Part shown: positions 529 to 63,961 of the stretch, piece after piece
How the letters are laid out: each line of letters opens with the position of its first letter
Numbering within the stretch: position 1 is the stretch's first letter
Virus record (IMG/VR): IMGVR_UViG_3300025606_000003
Span: 32,001-96,000 of that record
From: a virus
Taxonomy: Duplodnaviria > Caudoviricetes
Reading direction: 5' to 3' (one strand)
DNA length: 64,000 bases
Notes under the pieces: model-generated
Database searches by the model: none
Seen by the model: only the letters and a program-made list of their open reading frames with translations
Told to the model about the DNA's origin: nothing
Made by a program: the position numbers and the translations under genes

Positions 529-1809
529 CTAAAAGTTCCAGAAGTCGTCGGGCGGGGAAGCGGGGCCGGGAAACTGCTGCTCGGTTTCCACGCCTTCGCT
601 GCGCTCGGTAAGCACGGCCTCGCTGCTGTCTCCCAGGATTTCCGTTTCCCAGAAGACCGTCAGCTGGCCCGCGGCGACAACCGTGATAAATTGCGTATTC
701 GGGCCGTACTCGCCGGGCTTCTCAAAAAGCACGGCGTAATTGCCAGGATCTAATAACAGCGCGTCTGCCCAGCGCCCGTTCGCGCCAGTTGTAGTACTGG
801 CTACAGCGTTAGCTCTGGCTGGGTAGTCTGGTTGCGCGGCATCGTAGATATCTTTTGGAAACACATACACACGCGCACCCTCGACCGGATAGCCCGTCGC
901 GTCAGCGTACGCTAAATAATCCGGCGCGTTGAAGTTATGGTCTACCGGAACGATGCCGCAGCCAATTTGCGGCGGCACGGGCCCGGGACGCGAGGCTGGT
1001 TCGCCGCCAATCTCGATAGCGTAAATAGAGCTTGAGAACGGAATCAACCCCATTTGAATGTTGTAGACAAGCGGCACGCCACGCATAGCCGCCGCAACCT
1101 GAATGCTGTGTACCAACCAGCGCTCGTCGCTGGTGCCGTTTACCCAGATGTCGTTGCGGTTAATGCTCGGAAACCCAATTACGCGGGCGGTGACTTCGGC
1201 GTTCTCGCGGGTTGTGCCCTTAAGCTGACCGTCTTGCTGCTCTGTAATAGTCTGGGTTGACAAGTCCCAGCATTGCATAGCCAGCGGCGGGTGATAACCA
1301 ACCTCGAAGCTGGTGCCGTTACAGATCGGGCAATTCGAGTCCAGCACCTCGCCAGACAGCTCGTCGCGACAGCGCTTGCACGGCCGCCCGAATCGGTAGG
1401 GCTTGAGCAAAAACCCCGAAACACTAACGTACTTGTGCCGGAGCTGCTCTTTCCGGATAACTTCACGCGATAGCACCCAATCGCGCTCAGCCAGCTCCCC
1501 GAAACAGCTGACAGCTTGGCTGACATAGATATCTTTGTCGGTTGTCAGCGTAACCCGGTAATGCGTTAACAGGTCGCTGGCAGAGTTGCGCCACGCATCG
1601 TCATACGCAACGTAGCCGTCAACAATCGGGTTTCCGACGTTATGCCAGTCAGGAGAATCGCGCAGCCCGGTGTTCCCGAACTGCAGCTGAAAAATGCGCG
1701 GGCCGGGGTCGTTAAACGCTGGCTCTAGCTGCCACCAGACCCGCGTAACGCCGCGGATCATGTTGTCCACAGCGACCTGACGAAACGGAAATAAACGCGG
1801 TTGCGACAT
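529..1809 (-). CDS. Probable neck/head-closure protein with Zn-ribbon insert and C-terminal beta-sandwich
   Basis: 426 aa; CKRC...CPICNGTSFEVGY Cys cluster; DIWV..ERWLVHSI segment; lies downstream of the capsid and adaptor genes. Confidence 0.5.
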   Translation of the reverse strand: MSQPRLFPFRQVAVDNMIRGVTRVWWQLEPAFNDPGPRIFQLQFGNTGLRDSPDWHNVGNPIVDGYVAYDDAWRNSASDLLTHYRVTLTTDKDIYVSQAVSCFGELAERDWVLSREVIRKEQLRHKYVSVSGFLLKPYRFGRPCKRCRDELSGEVLDSNCPICNGTSFEVGYHPPLAMQCWDLSTQTITEQQDGQLKGTTRENAEVTARVIGFPSINRNDIWVNGTSDERWLVHSIQVAAAMRGVPLVYNIQMGLIPFSSSIYAIEIGGEPASRPGPVPPQIGCGIVPVDHNFNAPDYLAYADATGYPVEGARVYVFPKDIYDAAQPDYPARANAVASTTTGANGRWADALLLDPGNYAVLFEKPGEYGPNTQFITVVAAGQLTVFWETEILGDSSEAVLTERSEGVETEQQFPGPASPPDDFWNF

Positions 1810-1815
1810 GTTTTG

Positions 1816-1821
1816 ATTATA
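1816..1821 (-). promoter_or_regulatory. Possible -10 box (TATAAT) for a leaderless transcript
   Basis: Minus strand gcagcTATAATcaaaacATG: TATAAT 6 nt before the ATG at 1809, no SD. Confidence 0.3.
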
Positions 1822-1831
1822 GCTGCAGAGC

Positions 1832-1877
1832 GCTGATAGCTAAGAAAAAGACGCAACGAGCAGTCAGAGACTGCTCG
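1832..1877 (-). terminator. Hairpin + T-rich tract + TTAGCTATCAGC box
   Basis: 9-bp stem cgagcagtc/gactgctcg (1857-1877), then minus-strand ttgcgtctttttc-TTAGCTATCAGC. The same box ends units at 62568 and 63296 and recurs at 63985. Confidence 0.6.
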
Positions 1878-2447
1878 CTCTCGGCGCGCGTCCGCCGCAG
1901 AATGTCGTACTACAGGGCCGCCCGCCGGGGCGACGGTCTCGTATTGACTCAAACCCAATCTGGTGGGTTCCAACCTGCCGCAGACCTTGGCATGAGGTTG
2001 GCTCACGTGTTTGTTGGCACACGCTGAAGCCTGGACTGCGATGTTGCCGCCACGGTCGGGCGCTCCCCGACGCGTCCGTCGGATTGGGTTTGCGACGTGC
2101 TAGCGTTTCGCAAAACCACAACTTTCTGCCGAGGGGTACGCCCCAAGGCGAGGCTGTCGCAACAACCTCCGGTGTGCGGGTGGCAGAGCACTGTATCCCA
2201 CAGTGTTGACTTCGCTGCAGTCTTGCTGCAGCTGGCTTGGACCCTTTTTGGCTTCGACGCACTGACCAAGCAGAAGTGCGTAGGTTCCGCGACGACCTCT
2301 CGGTCGCCGGTACTTCACCGGGCGCCGGAACAGCGCTTTCGGGAAGGCCGATTTATCGGCGTCAGCAGCGACTCGGGTGCTGCCGCAGCAGCGTCGATGG
2401 CGGCGGAGTCGTTGCTATCGCCAGCCATCCAAGATAGCTATTACCCT
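1843..2447 (-). ncRNA. Candidate large structured non-coding RNA (about 600 nt)
   Basis: Intergenic tract without a credible ORF; at least 10 helices, including an 11-bp long-range helix 1950-1960/2082-2092; GAGA tetraloop on the minus strand; bounded by the conserved promoter and the terminator box. Confidence 0.65.
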
Positions 2448-2454
2448 ATCAATC

Positions 2455-2483
2455 TATATGCCCGGTTTTTGCCCAATATTTAG
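2455..2483 (-). promoter_or_regulatory. Bipartite promoter CTAAATA-N14-GGCATATA (copy 1)
   Basis: Identical boxes and 14-nt spacer length at 63253-63281 and 63929-63957. Confidence 0.7.
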
Positions 2484-3499
2484 TACCGGAGCCGGAGGCC
2501 GCTGGCGTAGGCGCTGTACTTGTAATTGCTCGTTACTTCGCCGTAGCAACCCTCAAGATTCAGGCTAGCTTTGGTAGCGCGCACCCACTCGCGGTACGCC
2601 TGCCAGCGCATTTGCCCGGCCTGCTCGTACATGGGCGCCTTGTTCTGGTCGTTGATCTGCATGCCCGCGGCGGCATACTGAAAATCATTCCGGCGGTACT
2701 GCTCGGCCACCATGAAGAACAGGTTGGCCACAATTCCTTCCAGCCAGTGATAGCGGAACGGAAAGTTTTGCGTGTTGTAGACGGCGTCAATCGGCGGCGG
2801 GATCTCGTTCCAGTACATAACCGGCCGCGCGATCGCCAGCGCAATCTCGGCGTCATCAAACATGAGGTTATCGAGCAGGTAGCTTTCGCCGGGACTTGAG
2901 TCGCGCAAATGCAGCCGGATTTCTGCGATGCTGGGCGGCCCACCGTTTTCATTGTCTGGACCGAACAGGCTGCGCGTTATGACCAGCGAGAACGTGTTAG
3001 AGAACACGACGCACGGCAGGTCTTGGCTTTCTGCGACTGTGCTAACCAGCGCCATCTCAGCGTAGTAAATACCTGGCAACTTCGTCATCTCGGCGGTCAA
3101 CTCCGCCTCAACGCGCCCTTCAGCCGCGTTTACGACCGCGGCCTCGACTTCAAATGGCGGGCGTGCATTGCCCCACGACAGTTGCTCTTTCAACCGAAGC
3201 ACGACGCGATAGTCGATTACCGTAGACGAGCTTTCTAAGTCTTCTGGAAAGCCGCACGCTTGCAGACTTACTGGGCGCCCCTCTTTGTCGTGCAGTTGCC
3301 AGGCGACTGTCGCGCACTGGCCCTGGTTCACAGCAATAGACCGCATACGCCCAAGAACAGGCGCGCCGTTTACTGTGCTGACCGAAGCGCTGAGAATGTT
3401 CTGCCCAGCGCACGACACCGGAAAAAGACCGCCGACGGTTGTAATCGGCGCGGGTGTCGGGATTACGGGCTGAGAAGCTGGCGTAGCAATCACAACCAT
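2480..3499 (-). CDS. Probable head-tail adaptor with N-terminal BppU-like Ig domain
   Basis: 339 aa; N-terminal NAAEGRVEAELT...PGIYYAEM; C-terminal EIRLHLRD...FDDAEIALAI...YWNEIPP helical domain; downstream of the capsid gene. Confidence 0.5.
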   Translation of the reverse strand: MVVIATPASQPVIPTPAPITTVGGLFPVSCAGQNILSASVSTVNGAPVLGRMRSIAVNQGQCATVAWQLHDKEGRPVSLQACGFPEDLESSSTVIDYRVVLRLKEQLSWGNARPPFEVEAAVVNAAEGRVEAELTAEMTKLPGIYYAEMALVSTVAESQDLPCVVFSNTFSLVITRSLFGPDNENGGPPSIAEIRLHLRDSSPGESYLLDNLMFDDAEIALAIARPVMYWNEIPPPIDAVYNTQNFPFRYHWLEGIVANLFFMVAEQYRRNDFQYAAAGMQINDQNKAPMYEQAGQMRWQAYREWVRATKASLNLEGCYGEVTSNYKYSAYASGLRLRY

Positions 3500-4021: not shown

Positions 4022-4405
4022 TTACTCGGCGTTGCTCGCGGCGAGCGCGGCAGCCGATTGCAGGGTCAGCACAGCCGACGCGATGTCAGCCTGATTCGCC
4101 GCGGCGCGGGCAACGTCGTCCCACGCGGCAGCCTTTTCTGTTACGGCAGCGCCTGGAACACCTAACAGGGCGTCCAGCTGATTGCTCGCAACAGTTAACG
4201 CCGAAACGTTAGCAGCCGCGGCTTTCTCTTGCTCAACCGCGTAGAGCACGTGGAGCTTTTGCGCCACGGACCACATTTCCGCGGCTTCCTTTTCAGAGCG
4301 CGGCGCGACGCCGTTCGCGGCGAGCTTCTCGAAAAAGTATGGCGCTGCAAGCTTCGCCACAATTGTGTTGTATGCTTGCTCGGCCGCGGCCTTCACATTG
4401 TCCAT
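4022..4405 (-). CDS. Ala-rich head protein with K-x-A motifs
   Basis: 127 aa, SD aaggagg; VKAAA, EKLAA, EKAAA x2. Confidence 0.65.
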   Translation of the reverse strand: MDNVKAAAEQAYNTIVAKLAAPYFFEKLAANGVAPRSEKEAAEMWSVAQKLHVLYAVEQEKAAAANVSALTVASNQLDALLGVPGAAVTEKAAAWDDVARAAANQADIASAVLTLQSAAALAASNAE

Positions 4406-4428
4406 GGTGCCCTCCTTGGCACAGGGTT

Positions 4429-4461
4429 GGGAGGCGGGCGTTTACAACGCGCCCGCCTCCC
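4429..4461 (-). other. Strong stem-loop after the major capsid gene (mRNA stabiliser/attenuator)
   Basis: 12-bp IR gggaggcgggcg/cgcccgcctccc with no U-tract. Confidence 0.55.
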
Positions 4462-4479
4462 GTCCTCAGTTTAGAAACT

Positions 4480-5406
4480 TCACTTGAAGTCCACGCGGGC
4501 CAGACCGTTCGTGTGACCGAACGAGCCACCCTGCGTGTTATAGGCAAAGTACTCGAGCATGTAAGCCTCACGACGGATGTACATCGTGGTGGGCTCGAGC
4601 TCGTAATTCTTGCCAATGAACTTGGGTGACGCAAACATGAACAAGGAATCGTCGGGCACGAGCGAGCGTTTGATTGTCACAATCCAACGGGTGTTGAGAA
4701 AGTTAGTTTCCGCCCAGCCGTTCTTGATGATGTCCTGCGAGAAGTCACCGCCCATTTCGTCGCGACCGAACTTGAGGAGTTCCTTGATGGTGATGTTATT
4801 CACCAAGCAGGTCTCAACCTCGAAGTGCGAGGGCGTACGGGGCATGATCTTCAGGGCATCGACGAGCGTTTCGCGCGTGATACCGCCGTGGATCTCCTCG
4901 TACTGCACCGCGCCAGACGCCACGTTCTCAACACCCGGGGTCGGGAGTACGGCGTTGAACGCCGCGATGAACTTGGAGTCTTCTTCCGCCAACATGTCTT
5001 TGATCATGTTGTCAGAAAGCACCTGCCGGATGTCGATCACGTAAGTCCGAAGCTCGTCGACGTCCTTCTGCGCGCGGGGCGACACGATCCGGTCAAACAT
5101 GACGCGGTAACGCGGGCCACGGATGTAGAAGTTAATCGGGAGCGTCGCAAACGGGAGCGACACAGCCGCCGGAGAATCGGGCTCCTTGTCGACCACCTTC
5201 ACCGGCTTGTCCGTGTCGACCTGGCGGTCGAGCTCGTCATTGGTGATGGTGAGCGGCGGCATAATCCGCCGGTAGAACCCGTCTTCACGCATCTTGGTGC
5301 GCGTGAAGTCGTTAACTGCATCAACGGCCTGCTTCTGCATGCCGGGGGTATCGAGCTGCTCGAAAAGAGTCTCGTTGAGCAGCTGGATTTCTTGCTGAGT
5401 GGGCAT
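4480..5406 (-). CDS. Probable major capsid protein (HK97-type fold)
   Basis: 308 aa; SD ggaggt; strong C/G-ending codon bias; FTRTKMREDGFYRRIMP and DELRTYVIDIRQVL...DMLAEEDSKF pattern; canonical order protease-scaffold-decoration-MCP-adaptor. Confidence 0.7.
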   Translation of the reverse strand: MPTQQEIQLLNETLFEQLDTPGMQKQAVDAVNDFTRTKMREDGFYRRIMPPLTITNDELDRQVDTDKPVKVVDKEPDSPAAVSLPFATLPINFYIRGPRYRVMFDRIVSPRAQKDVDELRTYVIDIRQVLSDNMIKDMLAEEDSKFIAAFNAVLPTPGVENVASGAVQYEEIHGGITRETLVDALKIMPRTPSHFEVETCLVNNITIKELLKFGRDEMGGDFSQDIIKNGWAETNFLNTRWIVTIKRSLVPDDSLFMFASPKFIGKNYELEPTTMYIRREAYMLEYFAYNTQGGSFGHTNGLARVDFK

Positions 5407-21174: not shown

Positions 21175-24100
21175 TTAACTTTCGACGATGTGCACCGGGG
21201 AGTCGACGTCAAGTTCGCCCCGGCGGTAAGCGTTAATTGCGTCCTGCGTGCTGCGATATACCCTGGGCTTAGCTTTTTTATCGATGCGGCTCGAGGCAAG
21301 ATACACACCGGTCTGATAGTCCGCGTTCGGCACGTAATGCGCCTTGAAGTTGGATGTTGCAAAAAGGTTTTTGCTGGGAAGCATCTTTTCGACTGCTTCT
21401 TTTGCAGCGTCTTCTGTGCTGGGAACGTGATATTGCATCGCGTCTCCGTCAAAGTCGGCACCAAAACCTTTTGTAATGACCGGATTAACCTCCATGACCT
21501 TGTTTTTTGTAAGCTTTGGATAGAACGCCATCATACCGTATCGGTGCAGAACCGGCGCACGGTTGATAACGATAGGCCGAGACGACATCTGGGTCTCCAG
21601 CTCTGCCATCGCCTGTTTATTGCGGTCTTCGACAGCCTGCAGCGCCTGCATGCGCGGTAACCCGCGGCGCACTAGCCCGCGCACAACAAACGGCTTGTAA
21701 ACGGCCCAGGCCTTGTCTTCGGGCAGCGCGACCTCGTCCATGTTCAGGTCTGGGTTCGGCGTGATCACCGCCCGGCCCACAAGGTCAACCGTGGTGCTGA
21801 GCAACTTACGCTGCACGGTGCCGTATTTGGGCGAAGAGCCAAAAATATGGGACAAGAAGCCTTTCACGCGGCGTTCCTGGTTTTTTGGCTGCGTCGGATC
21901 GCCGAGCCCGGTCACGGCTTTCATAGTGTCGTACAGCGCCAGCCGTTCGTCGCCATAGCTTTCAAGCGCACCAGATGCCTCTTTCAAAGTGCTGTTGGCG
22001 TCCAGCAGTTCTTTGTAGAGATAGTTCGCATCGGCAACCAGGGGCAGTTTTTTATTACCCATTGTGCTGACCGGCCGGAAGAGCGGCGGCAGGACGGGCA
22101 TTTTTGTCAGCATCCAATCTTTGGGATGCACGCCGGTCTGCTCTGCGTTCTTCAAGTATCCCAACTTGCGCACCGCAGCGTCGCGCAGGGTCTTCCGGCC
22201 GGACTTGATATCTTCGCGCACCTGCTCGAGCATTTTTGGCAGGTTAATCCGAGATAGCGCGTTTTGAATCGCTTTGGGCCCAGTCTCGTCGTGGATCTTG
22301 GCTTCGCCTGCGAGCACGTTCCGGTACTCTTTTTCAGTCAGCCCAAGCACGCGACGAATAGGCTCTTCCATGACCGGATTCGGCATCGGTTCGTGCAAAG
22401 ATATCTTTGCCCACCGGTTGCCGCCGTGGCCGCCCGTAAGTTTTTCGTCGAAGAGGCCGCCAGCAATCGGCTTCAATCGGCCCTTCCAGTCGACGGTTTC
22501 AGAATTCTCGATTTCGCGACCGCCCGCCATGTCATCGACGTCTTTGTCGGTCAACGCCATGATGTGCGTCTGGCTGCCAGTGCGCACGGTGTTAATACCG
22601 GCGCCCTTCAGCTGGTTAACGAACTTTTCGTAGACGTGTGGCACCTTGGGCAACGGCGGAGTGTATCCGGCCATAAATTGCGACCAGTACTCTGGGTTTG
22701 CTTGGCCGCGCACCATCTTGGCGTCCCGGATTACTTTTCCAGCGCCGTGCGACAGTAACGCGCCAAGATCCAACATTCCGACGCGTTTAGCACCTTCGCT
22801 GCCGCCCTTGGCCGGAGTGCCTTCGGCTGTGTAACTACCCATCGCGCGGCCTTGCCCTTTGCCTTCGGCCGTGTGGTGCAGCTTCATAAAGAACCGGGAA
22901 CCGGTCAGCACGCCTTTGATCTTACGACCGGTTTCCGGATCAACTACGTCCTCGGTATCAGAGAGGCCGTGCTTCCCAAGCTCTTTTTGAGCGAAATCAA
23001 CAAGATCAACACTGCCGTCAAAGTCTTTGAGTTTGAACGGCTGACCCGTTTTGGCTGCAACTTTTCCAAGCGCGGCCTCGATCACCTGCGCGGGATTCAC
23101 GCGGCTGATAAGTCCAAGCGGGCTGACCAGCACTTCATACGGACTGCCGTCTTTATCGTGCGGCATCTGATGGTCAGGCACAATATCGGCAACAACGCCT
23201 TTGTCGCCGTATCGCCCGGTCAGCTTATCGCCAACCTGCATTTCCGCCTGTGTTTTTACGACGACCTGCACACCCTTGTTGGTATGCGCAACGTCGGTCA
23301 CGATACCGGGCGAATGATGATCCCAGGTTTCCGACTCGTTTGAGAAGTTGCCGGCACGCCCGCGGTGCACTTTGCCGTACGTTGTTTCTTTGGCCTTGGC
23401 GTGCAGGATTAGCGGATCACCGAACTGCACAACGGCGCCCTTCTTGATCGCGCCTTTGTCGTCAAAGTTATCAAGCTGCTTTTTGTCGTACTCGCCGGGA
23501 AACAACGCAATAAATGCTTTCTTGCCAGCGTGGCTCGAGTCTGTCCATTCGGCGGCATGCTGATACATGTGCTCGCTGGTCAGCTTGCGCGCTGTGCTTT
23601 GACTGATCACAACCGCGTCTTCGTAGTTCTTGCCGTGATACGGCAAATACGCCACGCGCAAATTTTTACCCAGCGCTGCAGAACCGGCCGGATCTGTAAA
23701 GTTTGAGTGCGCCAGCAGCTGCCCCGGTTGAATAACGTCGCCAGGCTGCACCGTCGGTGTTTGATGCCAAAACGTTTTCCGATTGAACGGGTGCTCGTTA
23801 TACAGATCAATATCGTGTTTGTTGCCGTCGCGATCGCGCAGCACCATTTTGCCAGGTTCAGTTGAAACAACTTGCCCGTGAAATTGCGCGCGTACAGCGC
23901 CCAGCTGCTCGCCCATTTCATCTTCGTGCGACGTGCCGTCTTTGCCGATAATAGCTGACTGCACGTGTGGCGCTTCAGGTCCAACCAGCGGCAGCGCTTG
24001 CGTGAACATGCGGCTCGCCATGATCACGCGGTGGCCCTTCATGTAAGACTTCATCGGCACCATGTTAGACAGCGCCGAAAACGTGTTGTCCATGTGCGGC

Positions 24101-26583
24101 AGGCTGTACTGTACTTGCTCGCGCGGCATGTACTTCATCTTGCCGTTGACCATCGCGGCAATCATGGGCAGCGTGCTTTTTTCTTCGCCCGGAAACGCCA
24201 GCGGCAATTCAGCCAGCTCGCCGGGTGTTTTGTACGTTGTCTCGCCTGTGCGCGTGTCAATTACGGGTGTGTAGATTTTGCCATCAGCGCCTTTGCGCGC
24301 GCCACGAGCAAAGCGCATGTCGACACCGACTTTTCCGCTGTTGCCGCACCAAAAACCGCAGCCGCCTTTTCGGCGCACGTAAAGCAGGCCGCCGGGCACG
24401 GTCGCGCAATACACCAGGCCGTCGTACTGTTGCCGGAAATAATGGCATTCGCCCTTGGGCGTATTCGGCAGCACTTGATGGCTAGTCTGTTTGTGTACGT
24501 GCACGACCCAGCAGCCGCCGACCGCTGCGTGAGGGCGCTTGTCGCGCTCGAACACGACTTTGCATGAATAACCCAGCCCAAAAGCCAGCCGCTCAAAATC
24601 AAGCGCGAGCTGGTGGCTGGCAGTGCAAAAACAAGTTCTTTCGCCGCGCTTGTTCTTGCGCCCTTCACTTTTCATCAGCGCGTCAAACAACCGAAAGCGG
24701 GCAGAAACCGGCGCATCCAAGAACTCTTCTGGGATCCAGCGGCCCGGGCTGCCGTGGAATTGCTTGAAATACGCCGCAACTTGTTTTGTCGCGATCGAAA
24801 ACGCCTTGCCGTGATAACCCCACTTAAACGGCAAGCGGCTCAACAACGCGCGGATTTGGTCGCAGTTTTCCGGATTGTGCTTTTGGCACTGCGTGATCTT
24901 AATCTGAAATTGCGACTTCTCCGGGCGATACACGCAGCTGCCCTCGCCCAAATACCAGCCGAGCAGTTCTGCCCAATCGTCCAACAAAACGTTGCCGACG
25001 ACAACCCGGTTATTGCTCTCGTAAACCGGCGCCGGAATGCTAAACACGGCGGCAGAAACGCCGCTGTACGGGTCAAAACCGGCAGAAAGAACACCGCGAA
25101 ACTTCAAGTGTGTCGTTTCGGCGGATTCGATTTTGTACGGCGCGCCTTCGTAAAGCGAGCGCACATACATCCGGTGATTCGGCGTCACAAGATAGTTAAT
25201 CTTGCCGGTAGCAGCGCCGTACATTTCGCCGACGTAGCGCGATTCGTGCAACTTTTCTGCCTTGTGGAACTCGAGCTGCCCGGCGACCAGGCAGGCAAAC
25301 TCGTCTCGCTCGGTGACGTCTGGCCACTTTTTCCAGCCACCGCGCGTCATAACCTCGGTTTGACTGTCGTAGCACTCGGGCGTGCGCAAGAAATCCACAA
25401 AACCAAGATGACTCGGCTGTACGCTGCGCGATTCTTGCGGCACGGCGTCAAGCGACCCGATGCCGCCTTCGCCCATGCGGGTCACGCGGGATTGATGATC
25501 GAAAATCTCGGCCGGATTGATTTCTTCAAGCGAGCTGCCCAACCCAGAGCCAATCAACGCAGCGCTGATGCCCTTGTTGAACACGCCAGTCGGAAGCCGA
25601 TCAAGATTTTTCTTGGCGGTTGCTTTCCAGAGAATCTGCCGCAACGTCTGCCGATCTTTTGTAAACCGCTCGGCGATCAAATCTTCCGGACCCACAACAG
25701 ATTGGTACGCCATGGCGTCGCGATCGTCCGGGTCGGCTTCTTTGCGATTGAGCGCGATGAGCTTCTTAGTGATCGCCAGAATTGCGTCCGGCGTAAGATT
25801 TTTGTATTCAGCGCCGAGCGTGCGCCGCGTGACATCTGGATCCATTTCCATGCGCGCAAATTCGTCGGCGATGGCTTTTTGTTTGCCGGCCGCGTCAATG
25901 CCCGGCACTGGTTTGTACACAAGTCGCTGGTACAGTTTGTCTAACGTGCCCGCGTCGCCTTTCTGCATATTGACGGCTGTAATGTCGTTGCCCCACGCAG
26001 CACGAATATCCTGATCGTGCGCGCCCATGGCTTTCAACAATGGCAACAGCGGAATTTTGGCCTGCCCAATATTGATGTTGAGCACGCCGGTTTTTGGATC
26101 CAAAAAGTAACGGTGCATGCGTCCTTTGCCAGGAAGCACATTGACGTGGGCTTCCAGCTCGCCGTTATCTTTTTCACGGGTGTAGACGCCGGGCTTCAGC
26201 CGCATCTGGTGTGCCAGCGTGTATTCAACACCGCGGTTCACAAACGTGCCAGAATCCGTGAGATACGGCACATGCGCCAGTGTTGTTTGCCGGCGGGCGA
26301 TTGGCTGGCCCGTCACATTGTCGGTAAGCGACCACGTGCCGGTCATACGCCGGTGCATAGAGTTACCGGTCAAAATAGCCGTCTTTTGATCAGCCTTGGT
26401 AAAACGCTCCGGCCCCGTGTACTTCACATCATGAAGCTGGAGCGTATAGAGATCGTTTTTAACCGGCTCAAGCGACGACGCACTGCGGAGCGCGCTGTCA
26501 AAGATGTTGTTACGCAGCGAACTGATGTCGCCAAACGCGCGCATTTGCGGCGCCGGAGAACCTGGAAGCATCGAGTCTGGCAT
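21175..26583 (-). CDS. rpoB: RNA polymerase beta subunit fused to the catalytic beta' N-terminal half, intein-containing
   Basis: Beta motifs GTFVNRGVE, RTPE/SGKVG, GKNYEDA, GDKLTGRYGDKG, MKLHH, PHVYEKFVNQLKGAGIN; then beta' motifs GGLFD, PKDWMLTKMPVLPP, NRAPVLH, GADFDGD (DFDGD at 21442-21456). Confidence 0.92.
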   Translation of the reverse strand: MPDSMLPGSPAPQMRAFGDISSLRNNIFDSALRSASSLEPVKNDLYTLQLHDVKYTGPERFTKADQKTAILTGNSMHRRMTGTWSLTDNVTGQPIARRQTTLAHVPYLTDSGTFVNRGVEYTLAHQMRLKPGVYTREKDNGELEAHVNVLPGKGRMHRYFLDPKTGVLNINIGQAKIPLLPLLKAMGAHDQDIRAAWGNDITAVNMQKGDAGTLDKLYQRLVYKPVPGIDAAGKQKAIADEFARMEMDPDVTRRTLGAEYKNLTPDAILAITKKLIALNRKEADPDDRDAMAYQSVVGPEDLIAERFTKDRQTLRQILWKATAKKNLDRLPTGVFNKGISAALIGSGLGSSLEEINPAEIFDHQSRVTRMGEGGIGSLDAVPQESRSVQPSHLGFVDFLRTPECYDSQTEVMTRGGWKKWPDVTERDEFACLVAGQLEFHKAEKLHESRYVGEMYGAATGKINYLVTPNHRMYVRSLYEGAPYKIESAETTHLKFRGVLSAGFDPYSGVSAAVFSIPAPVYESNNRVVVGNVLLDDWAELLGWYLGEGSCVYRPEKSQFQIKITQCQKHNPENCDQIRALLSRLPFKWGYHGKAFSIATKQVAAYFKQFHGSPGRWIPEEFLDAPVSARFRLFDALMKSEGRKNKRGERTCFCTASHQLALDFERLAFGLGYSCKVVFERDKRPHAAVGGCWVVHVHKQTSHQVLPNTPKGECHYFRQQYDGLVYCATVPGGLLYVRRKGGCGFWCGNSGKVGVDMRFARGARKGADGKIYTPVIDTRTGETTYKTPGELAELPLAFPGEEKSTLPMIAAMVNGKMKYMPREQVQYSLPHMDNTFSALSNMVPMKSYMKGHRVIMASRMFTQALPLVGPEAPHVQSAIIGKDGTSHEDEMGEQLGAVRAQFHGQVVSTEPGKMVLRDRDGNKHDIDLYNEHPFNRKTFWHQTPTVQPGDVIQPGQLLAHSNFTDPAGSAALGKNLRVAYLPYHGKNYEDAVVISQSTARKLTSEHMYQHAAEWTDSSHAGKKAFIALFPGEYDKKQLDNFDDKGAIKKGAVVQFGDPLILHAKAKETTYGKVHRGRAGNFSNESETWDHHSPGIVTDVAHTNKGVQVVVKTQAEMQVGDKLTGRYGDKGVVADIVPDHQMPHDKDGSPYEVLVSPLGLISRVNPAQVIEAALGKVAAKTGQPFKLKDFDGSVDLVDFAQKELGKHGLSDTEDVVDPETGRKIKGVLTGSRFFMKLHHTAEGKGQGRAMGSYTAEGTPAKGGSEGAKRVGMLDLGALLSHGAGKVIRDAKMVRGQANPEYWSQFMAGYTPPLPKVPHVYEKFVNQLKGAGINTVRTGSQTHIMALTDKDVDDMAGGREIENSETVDWKGRLKPIAGGLFDEKLTGGHGGNRWAKISLHEPMPNPVMEEPIRRVLGLTEKEYRNVLAGEAKIHDETGPKAIQNALSRINLPKMLEQVREDIKSGRKTLRDAAVRKLGYLKNAEQTGVHPKDWMLTKMPVLPPLFRPVSTMGNKKLPLVADANYLYKELLDANSTLKEASGALESYGDERLALYDTMKAVTGLGDPTQPKNQERRVKGFLSHIFGSSPKYGTVQRKLLSTTVDLVGRAVITPNPDLNMDEVALPEDKAWAVYKPFVVRGLVRRGLPRMQALQAVEDRNKQAMAELETQMSSRPIVINRAPVLHRYGMMAFYPKLTKNKVMEVNPVITKGFGADFDGDAMQYHVPSTEDAAKEAVEKMLPSKNLFATSNFKAHYVPNADYQTGVYLASSRIDKKAKPRVYRSTQDAINAYRRGELDVDSPVHIVES
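24340..25374 (-). mobile_element. Intein with LAGLIDADG-type homing endonuclease (345 aa)
   Basis: Starts CYDSQTEV after RTPE; TPNHRM block B; LLGWYLGEG and LFDALMKSEG; VYCATVP block F; ends WCGN|S. Removal restores TPESGKVG. Confidence 0.9.
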
Positions 26584-34484: not shown

Positions 34485-35858
34485 TTAGCGCCTCCATCGT
34501 GGCAACGACGCGAGCGCGCCGTCACCGTAACGTTCGAACAACTGGTCTTGCAAACTCGGCTGCGGTAGCTCTCCGCGGAAAGCTTTCAGCGCCATTTGAT
34601 AACGGTAATTTGGATCCAGCTGCGCGCGCCAAATGTCATGATTGCGGCGTGTTTGCAGCATGAAATCGCCGCGGCGTTTGACCTCAGCCAGCTGGTTTTG
34701 AATATTCTCAAACACAGGCTTAGCGTGATCATACGGAATGATGTTGTTCACAGCCGCCGGGTTGAACATCTGCATCGCCTGATTGAGATAAACGCTGCCA
34801 GCTTTTTTGACGCCGGGCGGAATCGCAGTCGGGTGCACATGAAACCGAAACTTTGTTGGGCTGTGCGTAACGCCCTTGTACTTTGGCGTGTCGTCGTCGA
34901 TCTGCCAATCGTCCGGTTTTTCTGTCATCAACTGCCGCAAAATATTGTTCTTGTGCTCGTAGCGTTTGTTGTCGGAATGCTTTTTAGCCTCGTGCAGTCG
35001 CGACAACGTAGCAGCGGCAGCAAACTTTTCTACGGTTTCGATTTTTTGGTAGTCGCGCGGGTCTTCGGACAGGTGATCCTTGGCAATTTCTTTGGCGATT
35101 TGGTCATTGGCGGTGTGTTCGCACTCATGCTGTTGTCCTTCGGTCGTCGTCTTCGGGGGAAACTTGCTGTCCAATACGTGGTCTGCCGCAACGCCGGGCA
35201 AAATATCTTTGACGGCTGCCGCTTTTAGCTCGCCGCGAGTACTACCTTGCACGGGCATTGCATCTTCTTCTTCGGCGTGCGTCACCCGGCTCACCGAGTT
35301 ATTGCGCAGCACATTGCGGCGGCGGACTGCCACTGTAATGTGAAACTGGTGGTCCTCATTAGGCAGCGGCGACAGGCCGTAACTTTTGCGCAGCGCCGCA
35401 AGCTCAGGACTGGCCGCCTGGATCGCCCAAACGCGGTTCAGACCATTACTGTCAGGCGTGAACTCGCGAACTTGGCCCAGCGCATAATGAAAATGGTGCC
35501 CGCGCTCGCTAATCTTGTCCGGCCCGATTTTTTCAACCTCGTCGCCGGTCATGACCGTAATGTGCGCGTTGAGCACGTCTTTGTCGCCCGGCTCGCCTTG
35601 AAATGCGCTTAACGTTGGCAGCTCTGCGCCAGGCGCTGTCATGGCGTCAAATACGCCGCGCACAAGCGCATTGGGCACGGATAACAACAACCAGCCGCTT
35701 TTTGACAAGTACAGCCGGCCAGACAGATAGTGGTTTACGCCCACGGCAGCCCCGGTTTTGGACAACCAGGCCGCGGCGTTCCCGATCGTATACGCCGGGT
35801 GTAACTTCAGGCTGGCCGGATCCCAAGCCAGCGAATCAAGAATAGAAAGCCCATCCAT
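34485..35858 (-). CDS. Modular protein: 2H phosphoesterase domain + DUF5661-like domain + others
   Basis: Start ATG 35858; two H-x-T motifs (AHITV, FHITV); ECEHT..IAKEIAKDHLSEDPRDY; domains separated by KTGAA, LKAAA, EKFAA, KKAG. Confidence 0.7.
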   Translation of the reverse strand: MDGLSILDSLAWDPASLKLHPAYTIGNAAAWLSKTGAAVGVNHYLSGRLYLSKSGWLLLSVPNALVRGVFDAMTAPGAELPTLSAFQGEPGDKDVLNAHITVMTGDEVEKIGPDKISERGHHFHYALGQVREFTPDSNGLNRVWAIQAASPELAALRKSYGLSPLPNEDHQFHITVAVRRRNVLRNNSVSRVTHAEEEDAMPVQGSTRGELKAAAVKDILPGVAADHVLDSKFPPKTTTEGQQHECEHTANDQIAKEIAKDHLSEDPRDYQKIETVEKFAAAATLSRLHEAKKHSDNKRYEHKNNILRQLMTEKPDDWQIDDDTPKYKGVTHSPTKFRFHVHPTAIPPGVKKAGSVYLNQAMQMFNPAAVNNIIPYDHAKPVFENIQNQLAEVKRRGDFMLQTRRNHDIWRAQLDPNYRYQMALKAFRGELPQPSLQDQLFERYGDGALASLPRWRR

Positions 35859-35875
35859 GCCGTTGCCTTTCTGGC

Positions 35876-36028
35876 TTACGGCGCTTGATGCAGCTCGCCA
35901 GCTGCGGCAGCGTGCACCCGGGCCGAGGTCGCCACCGATGCGGCAGACGAAAAGAGCGCCAAACCGCTCATAAACGCCGCCACCCACGCCACCGCGCTCA
36001 ACGTATAACGAAGTTTACGCTCAATCAT
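35876..36028 (-). CDS. Small TM protein following the holin
   Basis: 50 aa from ATG 36028 (SD aaggag); MIERKLRY plus a hydrophobic helix. Confidence 0.5.
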   Translation of the reverse strand: MIERKLRYTLSAVAWVAAFMSGLALFSSAASVATSARVHAAAAGELHQAP

Positions 36029-40417: not shown

Positions 40418-41421
40418 AACTTTGGCTCGTATTCCAAGTGGTCCATGTACCGCTCAATTTGCCGGGCCACGTCATCGACAGTGATCATGCTCATGCAGTA
40501 CGCGATCGCCTGACCGTCTTCCATAAATGTCGGCAGCTCGCACAGGCTGTTGTTTTTTGCGTCGTTGTCAGCAAGCGGGATCACACGGCTTTTCCAACAA
40601 CCGCCCTGTTGGCAACACTTGAGCATGCCGCCAGTGTGCAGAAACTGGTGATCTGGGCCCTGCTCCCAGTGCGATGGCTCGCGGCCGCCCGCGAGCGTAA
40701 TGTTCGCCCGGCTCTTACGGCCAAATCTTGGATGCGCGGGCACGGCGTAGGCCAGGTGCATTGGAAAACTCACGCCGGAGATCACGCCAAACGAGTTGTA
40801 AACCAGGCGGATCATCTGCCGGATATCAGTGCGGCCCACAAAGTTCAGCACATTGTCGCCATGGAGCAGCGGGTGCGTGTGCTCCTTGGCGCCGACTTGG
40901 ACGAACCAAACATTGGGAAACCGCGAGACTAGCTCCTGATAGCGCGTGAAGCTCCAGGCTTTGGCGGTGTAGTCACTCTTGTGCCCGGCGTTGAGAATCC
41001 AGTACGGCACGTCTTTGCCGATCATTTCGTGCACGCCGGAAAACCACGCATGCTCTTCGGGCAGAATCTTGATCGCCCCGGCAAACTTGGCGGCTTTGAT
41101 AGCCACGCCCAGCTTTTCACCGAGATACTCGTTGAAGCTTTCGATGAAGCGCACCGGGTGCGAGTTTGAGCGATGAATGCTGGGATACTCTGCCTGAATG
41201 ACCGTGACGTCCGGGTCAGATTTGTCTAGCCGCGTGATGAGCGGGTTGCCGTGAAAGATCTCTTTGGCCGGGCAGTCCACGTCGGTAATGAACTTGCCCG
41301 GATGACTTTCGTGCAGGCTGGTCACAGCGTAGAGCAACATCACGATGTCGCCCGGGCTTTGCCAGTTCCGGAAGATAATCTTGCGCGGCACGGCGGCAGT
41401 AATCGACATAAAATGGTTCAA
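40414..41421 (-). CDS. GT9-like (heptosyltransferase-like) glycosyltransferase
   Basis: SPGDIVML, KAWS, FVQVG, NFVGRTDIRQ, SFPMHLA. Confidence 0.75.
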   Translation of the reverse strand: MNHFMSITAAVPRKIIFRNWQSPGDIVMLLYAVTSLHESHPGKFITDVDCPAKEIFHGNPLITRLDKSDPDVTVIQAEYPSIHRSNSHPVRFIESFNEYLGEKLGVAIKAAKFAGAIKILPEEHAWFSGVHEMIGKDVPYWILNAGHKSDYTAKAWSFTRYQELVSRFPNVWFVQVGAKEHTHPLLHGDNVLNFVGRTDIRQMIRLVYNSFGVISGVSFPMHLAYAVPAHPRFGRKSRANITLAGGREPSHWEQGPDHQFLHTGGMLKCCQQGGCWKSRVIPLADNDAKNNSLCELPTFMEDGQAIAYCMSMITVDDVARQIERYMDHLEYEPKF

Positions 41422-43343
41422 CCGTTGGCGGCCAGATATTCACGCATCTGCTGCAGCTTGTCGCCGCGGCCGGTGAAATGCACAAAGCGCGGCGGCGAGT
41501 CGAGGCCGACGGCAGCGTGGGAAAAATAGGTCGGCAGATAATTCCAAGTCAGCGGTAACAATTGCGTGCGTGTCGCCAGCTGCGTAACCGTTGTTTGCCT
41601 GACCGGCTCGACGGTGGTGGGCGGGTATCCAAGCTCCACCATCAGCGCCGCCTGCTCCCACCACGGGTGATCAATAAACTCGCGGGCGATCCAGATTTTT
41701 TCCAGCACTGGCAGCAATGCGCGAGTTAGGATCCACACGCCACAATTTGGCACGGGGCCAATATCAATGTCGTGCCGCGTCATGGCTTGCCAACTAGAAC
41801 CGTCAAACTCAGCGAAAATGTCTTTGTCGTCGCGCATGATCAGCACGTCAGCATCGAGCCACAACACGCGCGCGTACTGCTGCAGCGCCTGAAACAGCGC
41901 TGGAATCTTGTACCACGCCGGCGGTCGAGAGCCTACGAGATCGCAGGTCGCAAAATCGTAGCCGTATTTGCGCGCGTACGCGCGCATACGGGGCAATATT
42001 TCTTCGCTCATATTTGTAAAGGCGGGCCCGAAGTATCCGGTGAGCACCAAAGTATCCGACGCTTTGTTCTCACCTGCCGGCGCAGGCAGCACGTTGTGCA
42101 ATCGCGGCTTTCGTAACTCGACCATTTCGGTTTCAAGCTCTGCGGCCTTGTTCGCCGGCAGCATCACGATCGGCATTTTTTCATACATCATCCACTGGCC
42201 GTGCAGCATGCCGTTTTTGTAGGCCAGATCGGCCAAAATCGCGCCGTTGTGCCAGAACGCCACGCGCGGATCAGACTCGGTGCCAATCATCGACCACGTG
42301 TGCTCGACGGCTTTTTCACCGGCAGCAATCCGGCCGTGCTCCAACATCTCAATCCGCCGAAAATCGTGGCCGACGCGACAATACTGGTAATACCGCTGCG
42401 CCACGATTTGATTGGCGATTTCTTGGAATTTCAAGTTTGGCGCAGTCTTGGGCGCTTTTGACCAGATCGAGCGCAAATCCTCGAGATAGACCAGGCACTC
42501 GTTTTCCAGCTCGAAGCCGGGAATATGCTCATTGTGGCCCTGCAGCTGCCACTTACGAAGATTCCGGTGCTGGAACACCCGGCTGCCGTCGAAGTCGTGC
42601 TGACACATGGTTCCCGTGAGTGCATGAATACCCCGCCGCGGCATCGAGTATTCCTGCCCCAGCTTGCGCCACGCCATGTGAAACGTTTCTTTATCGCCGT
42701 GAATGTGCCGGTAGTAAAAACTGCTCCACTCGTTGAAGTGCATCGCGACGTTGAGCGCCTTCCAGCAGCGCCGCTTGTCAACTATGATCTGCCCGGATTC
42801 AAACTCGGGCTCGTCGCGATACGGCACGTTCACAATGCGCCAAATAGCCCGGTCAGCGGCAAGCCGGCCGTAGTCAGGCCAGAAAATCGCGCCGGTGTTT
42901 TGATACTCCTGAGTATCAAACAAGTATTCCGGGTTCCGCACCGCTACGTTGTCGGCGTCCAGAAAGAGCACTTCCTCGAACGGGCAGTGCAGCAGCGCAA
43001 ACGACTTGAGCTCCCAGCCGTGGAGCGTGCGCACCGGATATTGCTTCCGAACTTCATAGCCGTCGACGCATTCCACGTTGTACGGCTTTACAATAGCGCG
43101 CATTTCATCGTCGATCTCGTCGGGGCCGAGATGCCAGAATTGCGCCGGCAAATTGCAGCCGTGCCGACGCAGCATCCGAATCGCCACGTATGCGTTCGTG
43201 AAATACCGCGGACCGCCCGCGCAAATCACAATGCCGCGCCCAGCAAACCGGTCCTGGGGATACTCCTGCGGCGTCGCGACGTACGCCTCGAGCAGCTGCG
43301 TGTAGTCTGCGTCACTTCTGGGCGTGGGTTGTTCAGCTGTCAT
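41418..43343 (-). CDS. Fusion of GT71 (MNN1/MNN2-type) and GT34 (MNN10-type) glycosyltransferase domains
   Basis: Start ATG 43343. N-domain: RGIVICAGG, PFEEVLFLDADN, GAIFWPD, ESGQIIVDK, GDKETF. C-domain: PAWYKI, LWLDAD, NCGVW, WEQAAL. Confidence 0.8.
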   Translation of the reverse strand: MTAEQPTPRSDADYTQLLEAYVATPQEYPQDRFAGRGIVICAGGPRYFTNAYVAIRMLRRHGCNLPAQFWHLGPDEIDDEMRAIVKPYNVECVDGYEVRKQYPVRTLHGWELKSFALLHCPFEEVLFLDADNVAVRNPEYLFDTQEYQNTGAIFWPDYGRLAADRAIWRIVNVPYRDEPEFESGQIIVDKRRCWKALNVAMHFNEWSSFYYRHIHGDKETFHMAWRKLGQEYSMPRRGIHALTGTMCQHDFDGSRVFQHRNLRKWQLQGHNEHIPGFELENECLVYLEDLRSIWSKAPKTAPNLKFQEIANQIVAQRYYQYCRVGHDFRRIEMLEHGRIAAGEKAVEHTWSMIGTESDPRVAFWHNGAILADLAYKNGMLHGQWMMYEKMPIVMLPANKAAELETEMVELRKPRLHNVLPAPAGENKASDTLVLTGYFGPAFTNMSEEILPRMRAYARKYGYDFATCDLVGSRPPAWYKIPALFQALQQYARVLWLDADVLIMRDDKDIFAEFDGSSWQAMTRHDIDIGPVPNCGVWILTRALLPVLEKIWIAREFIDHPWWEQAALMVELGYPPTTVEPVRQTTVTQLATRTQLLPLTWNYLPTYFSHAAVGLDSPPRFVHFTGRGDKLQQMREYLAANG

Positions 43344-43365
43344 GGCTTTCACTGCGGGTGCGGCG

Positions 43366-43884
43366 TTAGTTCTTCCAAAAAAAGCCCACGCCACGGCCGA
43401 GAATGTCGTACGTGACGCTGTAGATCGGCGTGCCAAGGTGCTGCAAAAAGCGCGGAATGTCGAATTCGTTGACGTCGTGCACGATGAGCAGGCCGTCGTC
43501 ATCGAGCTTTTCGCGCCAGTACCGGATCAATTCTGGTACGACTGTCTCGCCGTGAAAAGAGTCGTGAAACACCACTGCGTAACGCCGCGGCAGCTGCAGC
43601 TCCGCCTCGCCTGTAATCAGCGCAAACTCTGCGTCCGGAGCCGCGGCCTGCCGGCGGGGCAGCGAGCCGGGATCTGGATCGCACGATTTCACGCACAGGC
43701 CAGCGCGGCTCAACGCCGCCGTGCCGTGCCCCCAGAACGACCCCACTTCAACTGCTGCGCGGCCGGCGTACGGTTTGACTGTCTGGTAAATCTGCAGAAT
43801 GTGATTTACGTCTGTGACAAACTCGTGCGAGTAGTTCATCGCCCGCAAGGCCGCGATGTTCGCGTGATCTTTGAAATTCGCCAT
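43366..43884 (-). CDS. Class I SAM-dependent methyltransferase (Methyltransf_24-like)
   Basis: VEVGSFWG, FHDSFH, GLLIVHD. Confidence 0.75.
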   Translation of the reverse strand: MANFKDHANIAALRAMNYSHEFVTDVNHILQIYQTVKPYAGRAAVEVGSFWGHGTAALSRAGLCVKSCDPDPGSLPRRQAAAPDAEFALITGEAELQLPRRYAVVFHDSFHGETVVPELIRYWREKLDDDGLLIVHDVNEFDIPRFLQHLGTPIYSVTYDILGRGVGFFWKN

Positions 43885-62630: not shown

Positions 62631-62634
62631 CTAA

Positions 62635-62793
62635 TCAGGTCACGTCCCAGCTGTTCAGCCGGACGTGCCGGCCGTCGAGGCTCTTGGCCACCAGGCGGTT
62701 CAGCCGGTGGTTGTGCCGCTTGAGGGCGCGGCGGATCTTGGCGGCGCCCCGCGTCTTGGGGCAGTGCCGCCAAGCCCGTTGCCAGTCGGTCAT
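62635..62793 (-). CDS. Small basic protein (52 aa)
   Basis: SD ggaggt; MTDWQRAWRHCPKTRGAAKIRRALKRHNHRLNR... Confidence 0.6.
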   Translation of the reverse strand: MTDWQRAWRHCPKTRGAAKIRRALKRHNHRLNRLVAKSLDGRHVRLNSWDVT

Positions 62794-63246
62794 GGTGACC
62801 TCCGGTGTTAGGCTGCAGGATTTACAAACGCATCCTGCTCGCGTTTCGCGGTGGCGGCTCGCTACGCCCAGCTGCACTTCCCAGCTGTATTACACCGGAG
62901 TTATCCGGCTTCACCAGAATTATCTGGGTCAGACTTCGTTGTACACCCGCCAGTCACGGCATGGGGGAGCGCCACTTCCCCTTCGCCAAGAGAGTTGCTA
63001 GCTCTTCTTGGCGCCATCACGAGCCGGGCGCTGGCGACGAGCGCCAACGGGGTTCGTGATGGGGCGGGCGACGACGGCAGCAACCTGCCACGACTTCGTC
63101 ACCAGCCGGCACCGACCACGACGGTAAGCCATAAAGCTATACCTCCGCGGGACGCATCTCGCTGCGTCCTAGCGTTCAGCTCGCGCCTACATAGGGCTTT
63201 ACGGGGGAGCTGAAGTCTCCCCGTACACAGATACGAATATCCGTGT
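62794..63246 (-). ncRNA. Candidate large structured RNA/leader (about 450 nt)
   Basis: At least 12 hairpins in series between promoter copy 2 and the 52-aa gene; no credible ORF. Confidence 0.6.
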
Positions 63247-63252
63247 ACATTT

Positions 63253-63281
63253 TATATGCCGTGTTTTTGGCCTGTATTTAG
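63253..63281 (-). promoter_or_regulatory. Bipartite promoter CTAAATA-N14-GGCATATA (copy 2)
   Basis: Exact boxes and spacer length shared with copies 1 and 3. Confidence 0.7.
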
Positions 63282-63295
63282 CTTGCAGCAAAACA

Positions 63296-63928: not shown

Positions 63929-63957
63929 TATATGCCCGCGAAACACCCGGTATTTAG
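63929..63957 (-). promoter_or_regulatory. Bipartite promoter CTAAATA-N14-GGCATATA (copy 3)
   Basis: Exact boxes and spacer length shared with copies 1 and 2. Confidence 0.7.
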
Positions 63958-63961
63958 CCTT

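Follow-up and report, generated by a model that had tools for sequence, protein, structure and literature searches.

The stretch of DNA considered here, referred to as the window, comprises 64,000 nucleotides (nt) of a 107-kb viral record from IMG/VR that is ~52% complete. The relatives of the window phage are phages of ~200 kb, and the minus strand carries every gene of the window. Between a gene encoding a 339-aa protein and the next gene downstream, which encodes a 426-aa protein, lies a gap of 670 bp (1810-2479), the largest in the 64 kb to be free of an open reading frame (ORF). An initial annotation of this DNA had pointed to a gap of that size among tightly packed genes, which was confirmed, and had proposed that it encodes a large and possibly new phage non-coding RNA (ncRNA) with a promoter and terminator of its own. 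The analysis described below indicates that the gap is very probably an accessory, self-contained minus-strand unit making an ncRNA of ~600 nt, a mosaic assembled around a 62-nt core (motif A) that belongs to a widespread family outside Rfam. The features of the locus are listed below in the direction of the genes; L-numbers and P0003 are labels for the phage and metagenome sequences with which the window was compared.

2480..3499, minus strand: upstream flanking gene, 339 aa, from ORF and codon score; the gene is conserved in ~400 database proteins
2455..2481, minus strand: promoter-like box AAATATTGGGCAAAAACCGGGCATATA, whose start falls one base within the stop codon of the 339-aa gene
2433..2450, minus strand: 5' hairpin GAUAG-N8-CUAUC at the predicted transcript start, from the alignment of the insert with L056; common to L055/L056
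2179..2240, minus strand: motif A, conserved core of 62 nt (79.4 bits, E 2e-21 with covariance model R1); sole copy in the 107-kb record
2125..2187, minus strand: predicted domain right after motif A, from the minimum free energy (MFE) fold, in which a helix UCUGCC/GGCAGA (2187-2182 with 2130-2125) encloses two hairpins
1898..2007, minus strand: block B, 110 nt, with hairpin GUCGCCC-CGGC-GGGCGGC, from blastn and alignment (81% identity to L059:12122-12230)
1845..1879, minus strand: intrinsic terminator, 11-pair stem with 3-nt loop and then a T-run, from a terminator scan and as an inverted repeat
1816..1843, minus strand: post-terminator box TTAGCTATCAG and then GCTATAAT, 7 nt ahead of the ATG of the 426-aa gene
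529..1809, minus strand: downstream flanking gene, 426 aa, from its ORF; a weak CarboxypepD_reg-like domain is sub-threshold in Pfam

Motif A, a conserved phage RNA

Motif A is known from 24 distinct phage and metagenome sequences. The copy in the window consists, in order, of GCCA, hairpin 1 (2232-2214, 7 bp with a CAAGA loop), the linker GAAGUCAAC, hairpin 2 (2205-2189, 5 bp with a UGGGAUA loop) and GCUCUGC. The consensus opens with GCCA; a 7-bp stem capped by a CAAGA loop, the linker GAAGnCAAC and a 5-bp stem capped by a UGGnAUn loop come next, and GCnCUGC concludes it. An A usually follows, and roughly half of the sequences then have a C-rich stretch ending in CUUU. In all, ~25 unpaired nucleotides are invariant.

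Searches were made with two patterns that specified unpaired letters only, GCCA-N7-CAAGA-N7-GAAGNCAAC and CAAGA-N7-GAAGNCAAC-N9-17-GCNCTGC, and these gave 22 and 9 matches in IMG/VR, while metagenome contigs yielded 110. The matches were bimodal: one class possessed 6-7 of the seven stem-1 pairs and the second stem, together with a GCCA and a UGG loop that had not been asked for, while the other possessed 0-5 stem-1 pairs and none of those features. When 185,579 genomes of prokaryote species were searched (one genome each), all 58 pattern matches had 0-5 of the seven stem-1 pairs and none reached E 1e-4 with R1.

In an alignment of 20 sequences, 99.2% of the 240 cells were occupied by standard pairs, and 10 of the 12 pairs had changed on both sides (63 such cells). 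The observed values were reached by none of 500 shuffles, except that 3/500 attained the number of pairs altered at both positions, and a shift of the partner by 1-3 columns caused pairing to fall to 20-50%. RNAalifold, unaided, predicts the same two helices. The alignment also contains 16 G-U/U-G cells, and because these would become A-C mismatches if read on the opposite strand, they settle that the structure of motif A belongs to minus-strand RNA of the window, in gene direction. The initial annotation had considered the G-U evidence mixed and had let the orientation rest on the promoter and terminator; its choice of the minus strand is borne out, although it is now the wobble pairs and covariation of motif A that decide the matter and no longer the punctuation only.

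The covariance model R1 assigns 64-82 bits to true members and 28-37 bits to divergent copies, and chance pattern matches reach no more than 25 bits. Copies from outside its seed were found at L135:1839-1900 (73 bits) and L128:2031-2092 (64 bits). Two copies of 37 bits, at L128:1640-1698 and at its counterpart L118:441-499, have a UUCG loop and a AAUAGCAAC linker, and one of 28.6 bits at L160:5237-5319 has a hairpin inserted in loop 2. A further candidate, LR756511, was rejected with only 11 bits.

A search of Rfam 15 over motif A in the window and at 18 other loci found nothing at gathering score or at E up to 1-10, and ARAGORN found no tRNA or tmRNA over the motif at these places. A DNA search of 50,697 GenBank phage records left 1500-2800 without a match, and the 62-nt motif, taken from the window and from L105, gave chance-level partial matches only in the same records. 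Motif A is a widespread phage RNA family that is absent from Rfam.

An accessory cassette in a variable site

Relatives were collected by way of the flanking proteins, and the identities given in this section for individual relatives refer to the 339-aa protein. The spacing between the two flanking genes, which is 670 bp in the window, was found to be 15 bp in L036 (87%, a 200-kb genome), 29 bp in the P0003 contig (88%), 30 bp in L041 (81%) and 31 bp in L053 (77%), and the same two genes lie 2-60 bp apart in many more distant relatives. Motif A is dispensable, as it is missing from four relatives of the window phage whose completeness is at least 96%. Four contigs from other samples carry the same insert with 0 differences. 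The stretch itself is present in seven sequencing runs, all of them DNA metagenomes, with six labelled freshwater and no RNA run among them; contigs from those runs include identical copies, a co-occurring relative without the cassette and, in run X7, a variant of 2076-2306 at low depth.

The junction in L036 reads TAAATACCGGCCAAAAAC directly followed by ATG, while in the window TAAATATTGGGCAAAAAC is joined to CGGGCATATAG at one border of the insert and ATAATCAAAAC to ATG at the other. Of the promoter box, the 15-bp spacer of L036 (L036:5021-5035, ATACCGGCCAAAAAC) retains only the 5' half, AAATACCGGCCAAAAAC; the borders of the insert are CAAAAAC and TCAAAAC. With half of the box remaining and repeats of the CAAAAAC type flanking the insert, the spacer resembles a deletion scar, and we infer loss of the cassette from L036, through recombination between short repeats, and not a recent gain in the window phage.

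Other relatives carry different cargo between the same genes. The slot in L002-L005 holds ~840 bp (65-75% identity) with two translationally coupled small ORFs and three-periodic substitutions, and neither of the ORFs matches Pfam or PHROGs. This cassette (L002:5018-5865) has a conserved 5' untranslated region of ~190 nt with hairpins, ORFs overlapping at TAATG/TGATG, a terminator and TTAGCTATCAG. Unrelated cargo of 656 bp and 1.4 kb fills the slot in L024-26 and L031 respectively, and L050 has a short form of 300 nt. Motif A is found at the same site in L055/L056 (76% identity), within an ORF-poor cassette of 811 nt that shares with the window the promoter box and 5' hairpin, the terminator end and an internal block of ~57 nt equally far from the start. 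Between the window and L055/L056 four base pairs in the two hairpins of this block differ on both sides with pairing kept. L059, which has 10 kb of synteny with the window, carries a ~1070-nt unit with motif A in the same hotspot.

The stretch 1810-2479 is thus an accessory, moron-like cassette in a hotspot, carried by only some members of a freshwater jumbo-phage family, since relatives with 77-88% identity join the flanking genes by 15-31 bp and others hold unrelated cargo there. Morons and hypervariable cassettes with their own promoter and terminator are well known in phages, examples being the lambdoid morons and the promoter-stem-loop cassettes of T4-type phages. The likeness lies in an independent unit with promoter-like box and terminator, in its presence or absence between conserved genes and in its varying cargo. 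The cassette differs from them, however, in that the cargo is a structured RNA and not a protein gene, and in that the putative regulatory boxes are specific to this phage family.

Boxes of the form AAATAyn-GGnCAAAAACnCGGCATATA are found at 2455-2481, ~63253-63290 and ~63930-63960, where 0.01 matches would be expected by chance, and the promoter-like box is kept ahead of the cassettes in L050, L055/56, L031 and L023-26. Recurrence of this kind suggests a promoter role for the box at 2455-2481. The T-run with the TTAGCTATCAG box is found at four places in the 107-kb record (window positions 1843, 62578, 63307 and 63996), each after a terminator-like hairpin. In whole-genome searches the TTAGCTATCAG box was the only part of the insert to recur in the genomes of relatives, and the insert body never did. 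Together with GCTATAAT it is the punctuation of the whole family and probably the promoter of the next gene. The terminator and promoter that the initial annotation had described as shared with units at 62.5-64 kb do both recur there, the latter being best termed promoter-like. One of these units (62634-63290, minus strand) has the box at ~63253-63290, then ~460 nt without a credible ORF, a 52-aa ORF at 62792-62634 with a GGAGG ribosome site, a terminator and TTAGCTATCAG. This unit, in which R1 found no motif A, could represent a further long leader or ncRNA.

Coding potential of the insert

Codon usage was scored as log-odds after training on 28 genes of the window; across the gap the score was flat or negative in six frames out of six, in comparison with 0.15-0.5 per codon in the flanking genes. 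The three minus-strand translations of the gap are rich in arginine, serine and proline and are interrupted by stops, and a tblastx comparison of the insert with every other cargo at the site gave nothing below E 0.01. The stretch 1810-2479 is non-coding. Read-through of the three in-frame TGAs past the ATG at 2428 was also considered and rejected; the product would be rich in arginine and serine and its codon score is nil.

It might nevertheless be argued that the insert codes for one or more small proteins, such as a 37-aa ORF at 2428-2315 or a 132-aa ORF with a GTG start at 2262-1864, or that it is a decayed two-gene moron like that of L002-L005, where two real small ORFs occupy the same promoter and terminator frame at this site. 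The insert does contain long stop-free frames, and in L037 the JGI annotation places a gene of 86 aa on the other strand. However, at 60% G+C stop-free runs of such length are expected by chance (~0.2-0.7 per insert by our estimate), the codon usage of the genome is seen in no frame and the cargo of the relatives has no tblastx similarity to the insert. Moreover, motif A, which elsewhere is a conserved RNA in ORF-free arrays, coincides in part with the ORFs of 132, 88 and 72 aa, and the 37-aa ORF is missing from the homologous start of L056. A protein-coding insert is consequently considered very improbable.

Folding and modular composition

The minus strand from 2447 to 1843 folds with an MFE of -271.4 kcal/mol (z = -4.3 from 100 dinucleotide shuffles, -4.38 in a second run), while the plus strand of the same stretch gave z = -2.5. 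Fifteen of sixteen minus-strand control windows of 605 nt had z values between +1.1 and -2.2 and the remaining one reached -4.5, and the stability of the insert is therefore unusual for the genome but not unique. The control window with z -4.5 (4396-5000, minus strand) spans the 3' part of a 308-aa gene, which has the strongest codon bias nearby, and the 74-nt spacer after it. Sub-segments of the insert had z values of -1.5 to -2.9 each, and the 62 nt of motif A alone -0.6.

The helices listed in the initial annotation are all present in the sequence, including a perfect 11-bp helix (1950-1960/2082-2092), the terminator stem (1857-1865/1869-1877) and the hairpins at 2189-2205 and 2214-2232. 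Their fate on comparison with relatives was mixed: the two hairpins of motif A covary, as described above, but the 11-bp long-range helix is not kept in L059, where no counterpart was found. The domain at 2125..2187 is a prediction only, and similar downstream complements can be read in L057 and L064.

Homologues exist for three pieces of the insert only, namely the 5' hairpin, the 62-nt motif and the 110-nt block shared with L059. The hairpin of block B still pairs in L059, with one compensatory and one wobble change; there the block lies ~330 nt upstream of motif A, whereas in the window it lies downstream. The cassettes themselves are 300 nt long in L050, ~600 nt in the window, 811 nt in L056 and ~1070 nt in L059. 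In the 64-kb window Rfam 15 gave 0 matches at gathering score, and at E<=10 the region 1780-2500 produced only a chance match to Xoo8 (E 3.7); as nothing in Rfam 15 matches, the RNA is new to that catalogue, in line with the initial annotation. The sharing of modules only, the swapped order of blocks in L059 and the spread of lengths favour a modular RNA, which would be built around a small conserved core, over one conserved 600-nt architecture.

A single conserved tertiary fold of the whole ~600 nt, of the ROOL or GOLLD kind, would account for the density of hairpins throughout, for an MFE 4.3 standard deviations below that of shuffles, for the moderately raised stability of nearly all sub-segments (motif A alone being close to its shuffles at -0.6) and for the single unit running from promoter to terminator. 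As with ROOL and GOLLD, the RNA is phage-borne, several hundred nt long and near tRNA genes in some genomes. However, apart from the chance match there is no match to ROOL, GOLLD or other Rfam families even at E 10, homologues have only modules in common with block B and motif A in reversed order in L059, the 11-bp helix is without a partner there, and total length among cassettes varies from 300 to ~1070 nt. What is conserved is a 62-nt core and isolated modules, in contrast to those large RNAs, and a single fold of this kind appears improbable. The large novel phage ncRNA of the initial annotation therefore stands as a non-coding, uncatalogued RNA with its own signals, but not as one conserved ornate RNA of ~600 nt, given that relatives lack the stretch or share modules only.

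Genomic company of motif A

In the distant relatives L160 and L089, whose structural proteins are 36-40% identical, motif A is found downstream of the same genes and near tRNA genes. It follows a tRNA-Leu in L160, where it occurs on both sides of a 238-aa gene, and it precedes an array of 17 tRNA genes in L089. In L103 a tmRNA lies ~800 nt downstream of the motif on the same strand. In L128 and L118 two or three copies of motif A share a long, hairpin-rich region devoid of ORFs with pistol ribozymes (L128:1023-1087 and 1699-1763; L118:376-440, minus), with scores of 68 and 53 bits, and in both contigs the 53-bit pistol directly follows one copy of motif A. The region in the L128 metagenome contig extends over at least 1.4 kb and is ORF-free and hairpin-dense, with three copies of motif A as well as the pistols. 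A T-run begins 1-3 nt after motif A in L059, L081, L146 and L154, and a terminator hairpin is found ~30-170 nt after it in L105, L089, L160 and L057.

The pistol ribozyme model (RF02679) had no match in the window, and Y RNA had no Rfam match at the motif loci. Genes for Ro60/TROVE and RtcB were not found in five motif-bearing phage genomes, a search in which TROVE controls were matched and which leaves a host Ro60 possible. A search of the same five genomes for 2H-SAK was likewise without matches, but the control genomes were also unmatched and the result is uninformative. The window does encode a 500-aa protein (34485-35987, minus strand) with a 2H-SAK phosphoesterase domain and DUF5661. The 2H-SAK domain has been linked to RNA repair.

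Comparison with known ribozymes

Motif A resembles the small ribozymes of phages (pistol, hammerhead, twister, hatchet and theta) in its size of ~60 nt, its short covarying helices and its many invariant unpaired nt. It is also confined to phages, occurs beside tRNA genes, is sometimes found in tandem and abuts a pistol in L128/L118. Ribozymes of the theta type, which are like that of hepatitis delta virus, have been described next to phage tRNAs (PMC10879173). In contrast to these ribozymes, motif A matches none of their covariance models, and neither a pseudoknot nor a multi-stem junction was detected in it.

The 9-mer GAAGUCAAC and a loose GGUAU..UUCC resemblance are shared with the hairpin ribozyme in the sequence printed in PMC5379106, where GUCA is helix 2 and is altered in an engineered variant of the same paper. 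However, motif A is without loop B (AGAAACA / GUAUAUUAC) and without a strand complementary to UCAAC, none being found upstream of GCCA, and the hairpin ribozyme model (RF00173) had no match in the window or at the motif loci. The resemblance is judged to be due to chance. The ideas of a hairpin ribozyme and of a hammerhead permutation (PMC5379106, PMC10085705) were both abandoned, with core nucleotides missing and no Rfam match. The sequence UAUUAAAC, which follows motif A in L056 and is pistol-like by eye, had no Rfam score at E<=5.

Possible roles of the RNA

Transcription is predicted to run from ~2448 to ~1845 and would yield an ncRNA of ~600 nt. Motif A could serve in it as an RNA-processing or end-defining module, either by self-cleavage or through recognition by a nuclease or other RNA-handling protein, and would then split or mark the transcript as a 5' part of ~270 nt and a 3' part of ~335 nt. 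A role of this kind is suggested by the size of the motif, its ~25 invariant unpaired nt, its restriction to phages, its neighbourhood of pistols, tRNA arrays and terminators and the occasional tandem copies, and it is proposed tentatively, at somewhat short of even confidence; self-cleavage, as the particular form of it, is unlikely. A broader proposal would have motif A as a new class of self-cleaving ribozyme or a processing-recognition site, used by large phages interchangeably with pistol and tRNAs to cut ncRNA islands, with the window cassette as a two-part RNA. Such a general scheme must be regarded as rather unlikely.

A number of observations weigh against the interpretation of the insert and its motif given here. 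The seed instances of motif A were chosen from pattern matches partly by their pairing; the bimodality of the matches, the unselected features (GCCA and UGG loop), the control with prokaryote genomes and the unselected copies argue against circularity, lessening the concern without abolishing it. No consistent complement of the invariant GCnCUGC was found within -600/+400 nt, and thus no acceptor-stem partner for the 7 nt after hairpin 2, which is T-arm-like, and motif A showed no extra covarying column pairs and no CCA/UGG pseudoknot. With GCnCUGC unpaired and no pseudoknot, the fold looks simple for a ribozyme. Ten comparable candidate motifs failed to cleave in a published screen (PMC10085705). 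As to the insert as a whole, ordinary coding sequence in one control window was equally stable (z -4.5), and the insert is invariant in its own lineage (0 differences, L037-L040), which places its other helices beyond a test by covariation. Lastly, each of five large phage records, of which two are complete (165 and 200 kb), has motif A once only, and a dedicated RNA gene would explain this no less well than a punctuation element.

A trans-acting RNA is indeed in better accord with one copy per genome and a unit that stands alone; motif A would then be the binding core of a decoy or regulator for host takeover or counter-defence, and this is a plausible though doubtful alternative. A role in cis can also be envisaged, similar to nut or put sites, whereby the polymerase, once modified by the nascent RNA, would either read through the terminator at 1879-1845 or halt there, tuning the 426-aa gene and those beyond. 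The layout of promoter, two-hairpin RNA, terminator and next gene is that expected of such a device; motif A lies no more than 170 nt upstream of a T-run or terminator hairpin in at least eight lineages, and a protein gene in L160 has the motif to either side. Hairpin 1 is capped by a pentaloop, as is the stem of lambda boxB (GAAAA/GAAGA), a similarity to be taken as a lead only. However, the downstream gene is present in relatives that have no cassette at all, where it is taken to be expressed, and it has a TATAAT-like box of its own after the terminator. In L128 and L118, moreover, motif A occurs in long ORF-free arrays with ribozymes, and no factor is known for control in cis, which seems quite unlikely.

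Other features of the window

The two flanking proteins (339 aa and 426 aa) had no family-level sequence match in Pfam, PHROG or the PDB, and the AlphaFold model of the 339-aa protein (mean pLDDT 56) was too poor for a structure search. The initial annotation had placed the insert in a virion neck operon, a label that these searches did not bear out. Elsewhere in the window a 1802-aa ORF (21175-26583, minus strand), in which Rpb2 domain 6 (E 4e-50) precedes Rpb1 domains 1-2, encodes a fused beta/beta'-like multisubunit RNA polymerase in a ~200-kb phage. A 694-aa protein (41418-43502, minus strand) has two glycosyltransferase regions, with a match to Mannosyl_trans3 at E 5e-39 and weak matches to GT8/GT34. 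These families are mostly eukaryotic.

Significance

The structured RNAs encoded by phages are far less explored than phage proteins, and motifs rich in invariant unpaired nt have repeatedly proved to be ribozymes or devices that bind ligands or proteins. Motif A provides a testable 62-nt consensus with strong covariation, restricted to phages and with telling neighbours in pistol ribozymes, tRNA arrays and tmRNA. By our count ~10 natural classes of self-cleaving ribozyme are known, to which motif A would add one if it were found to cleave itself. What is new here is the motif family, together with the hotspot for RNA, protein and tRNA cargo. In these ~200-kb freshwater phages a single slot among conserved genes exchanges protein morons, tRNA genes and RNA cassettes, and it is therefore a natural place in which to seek functions in host takeover or counter-defence.

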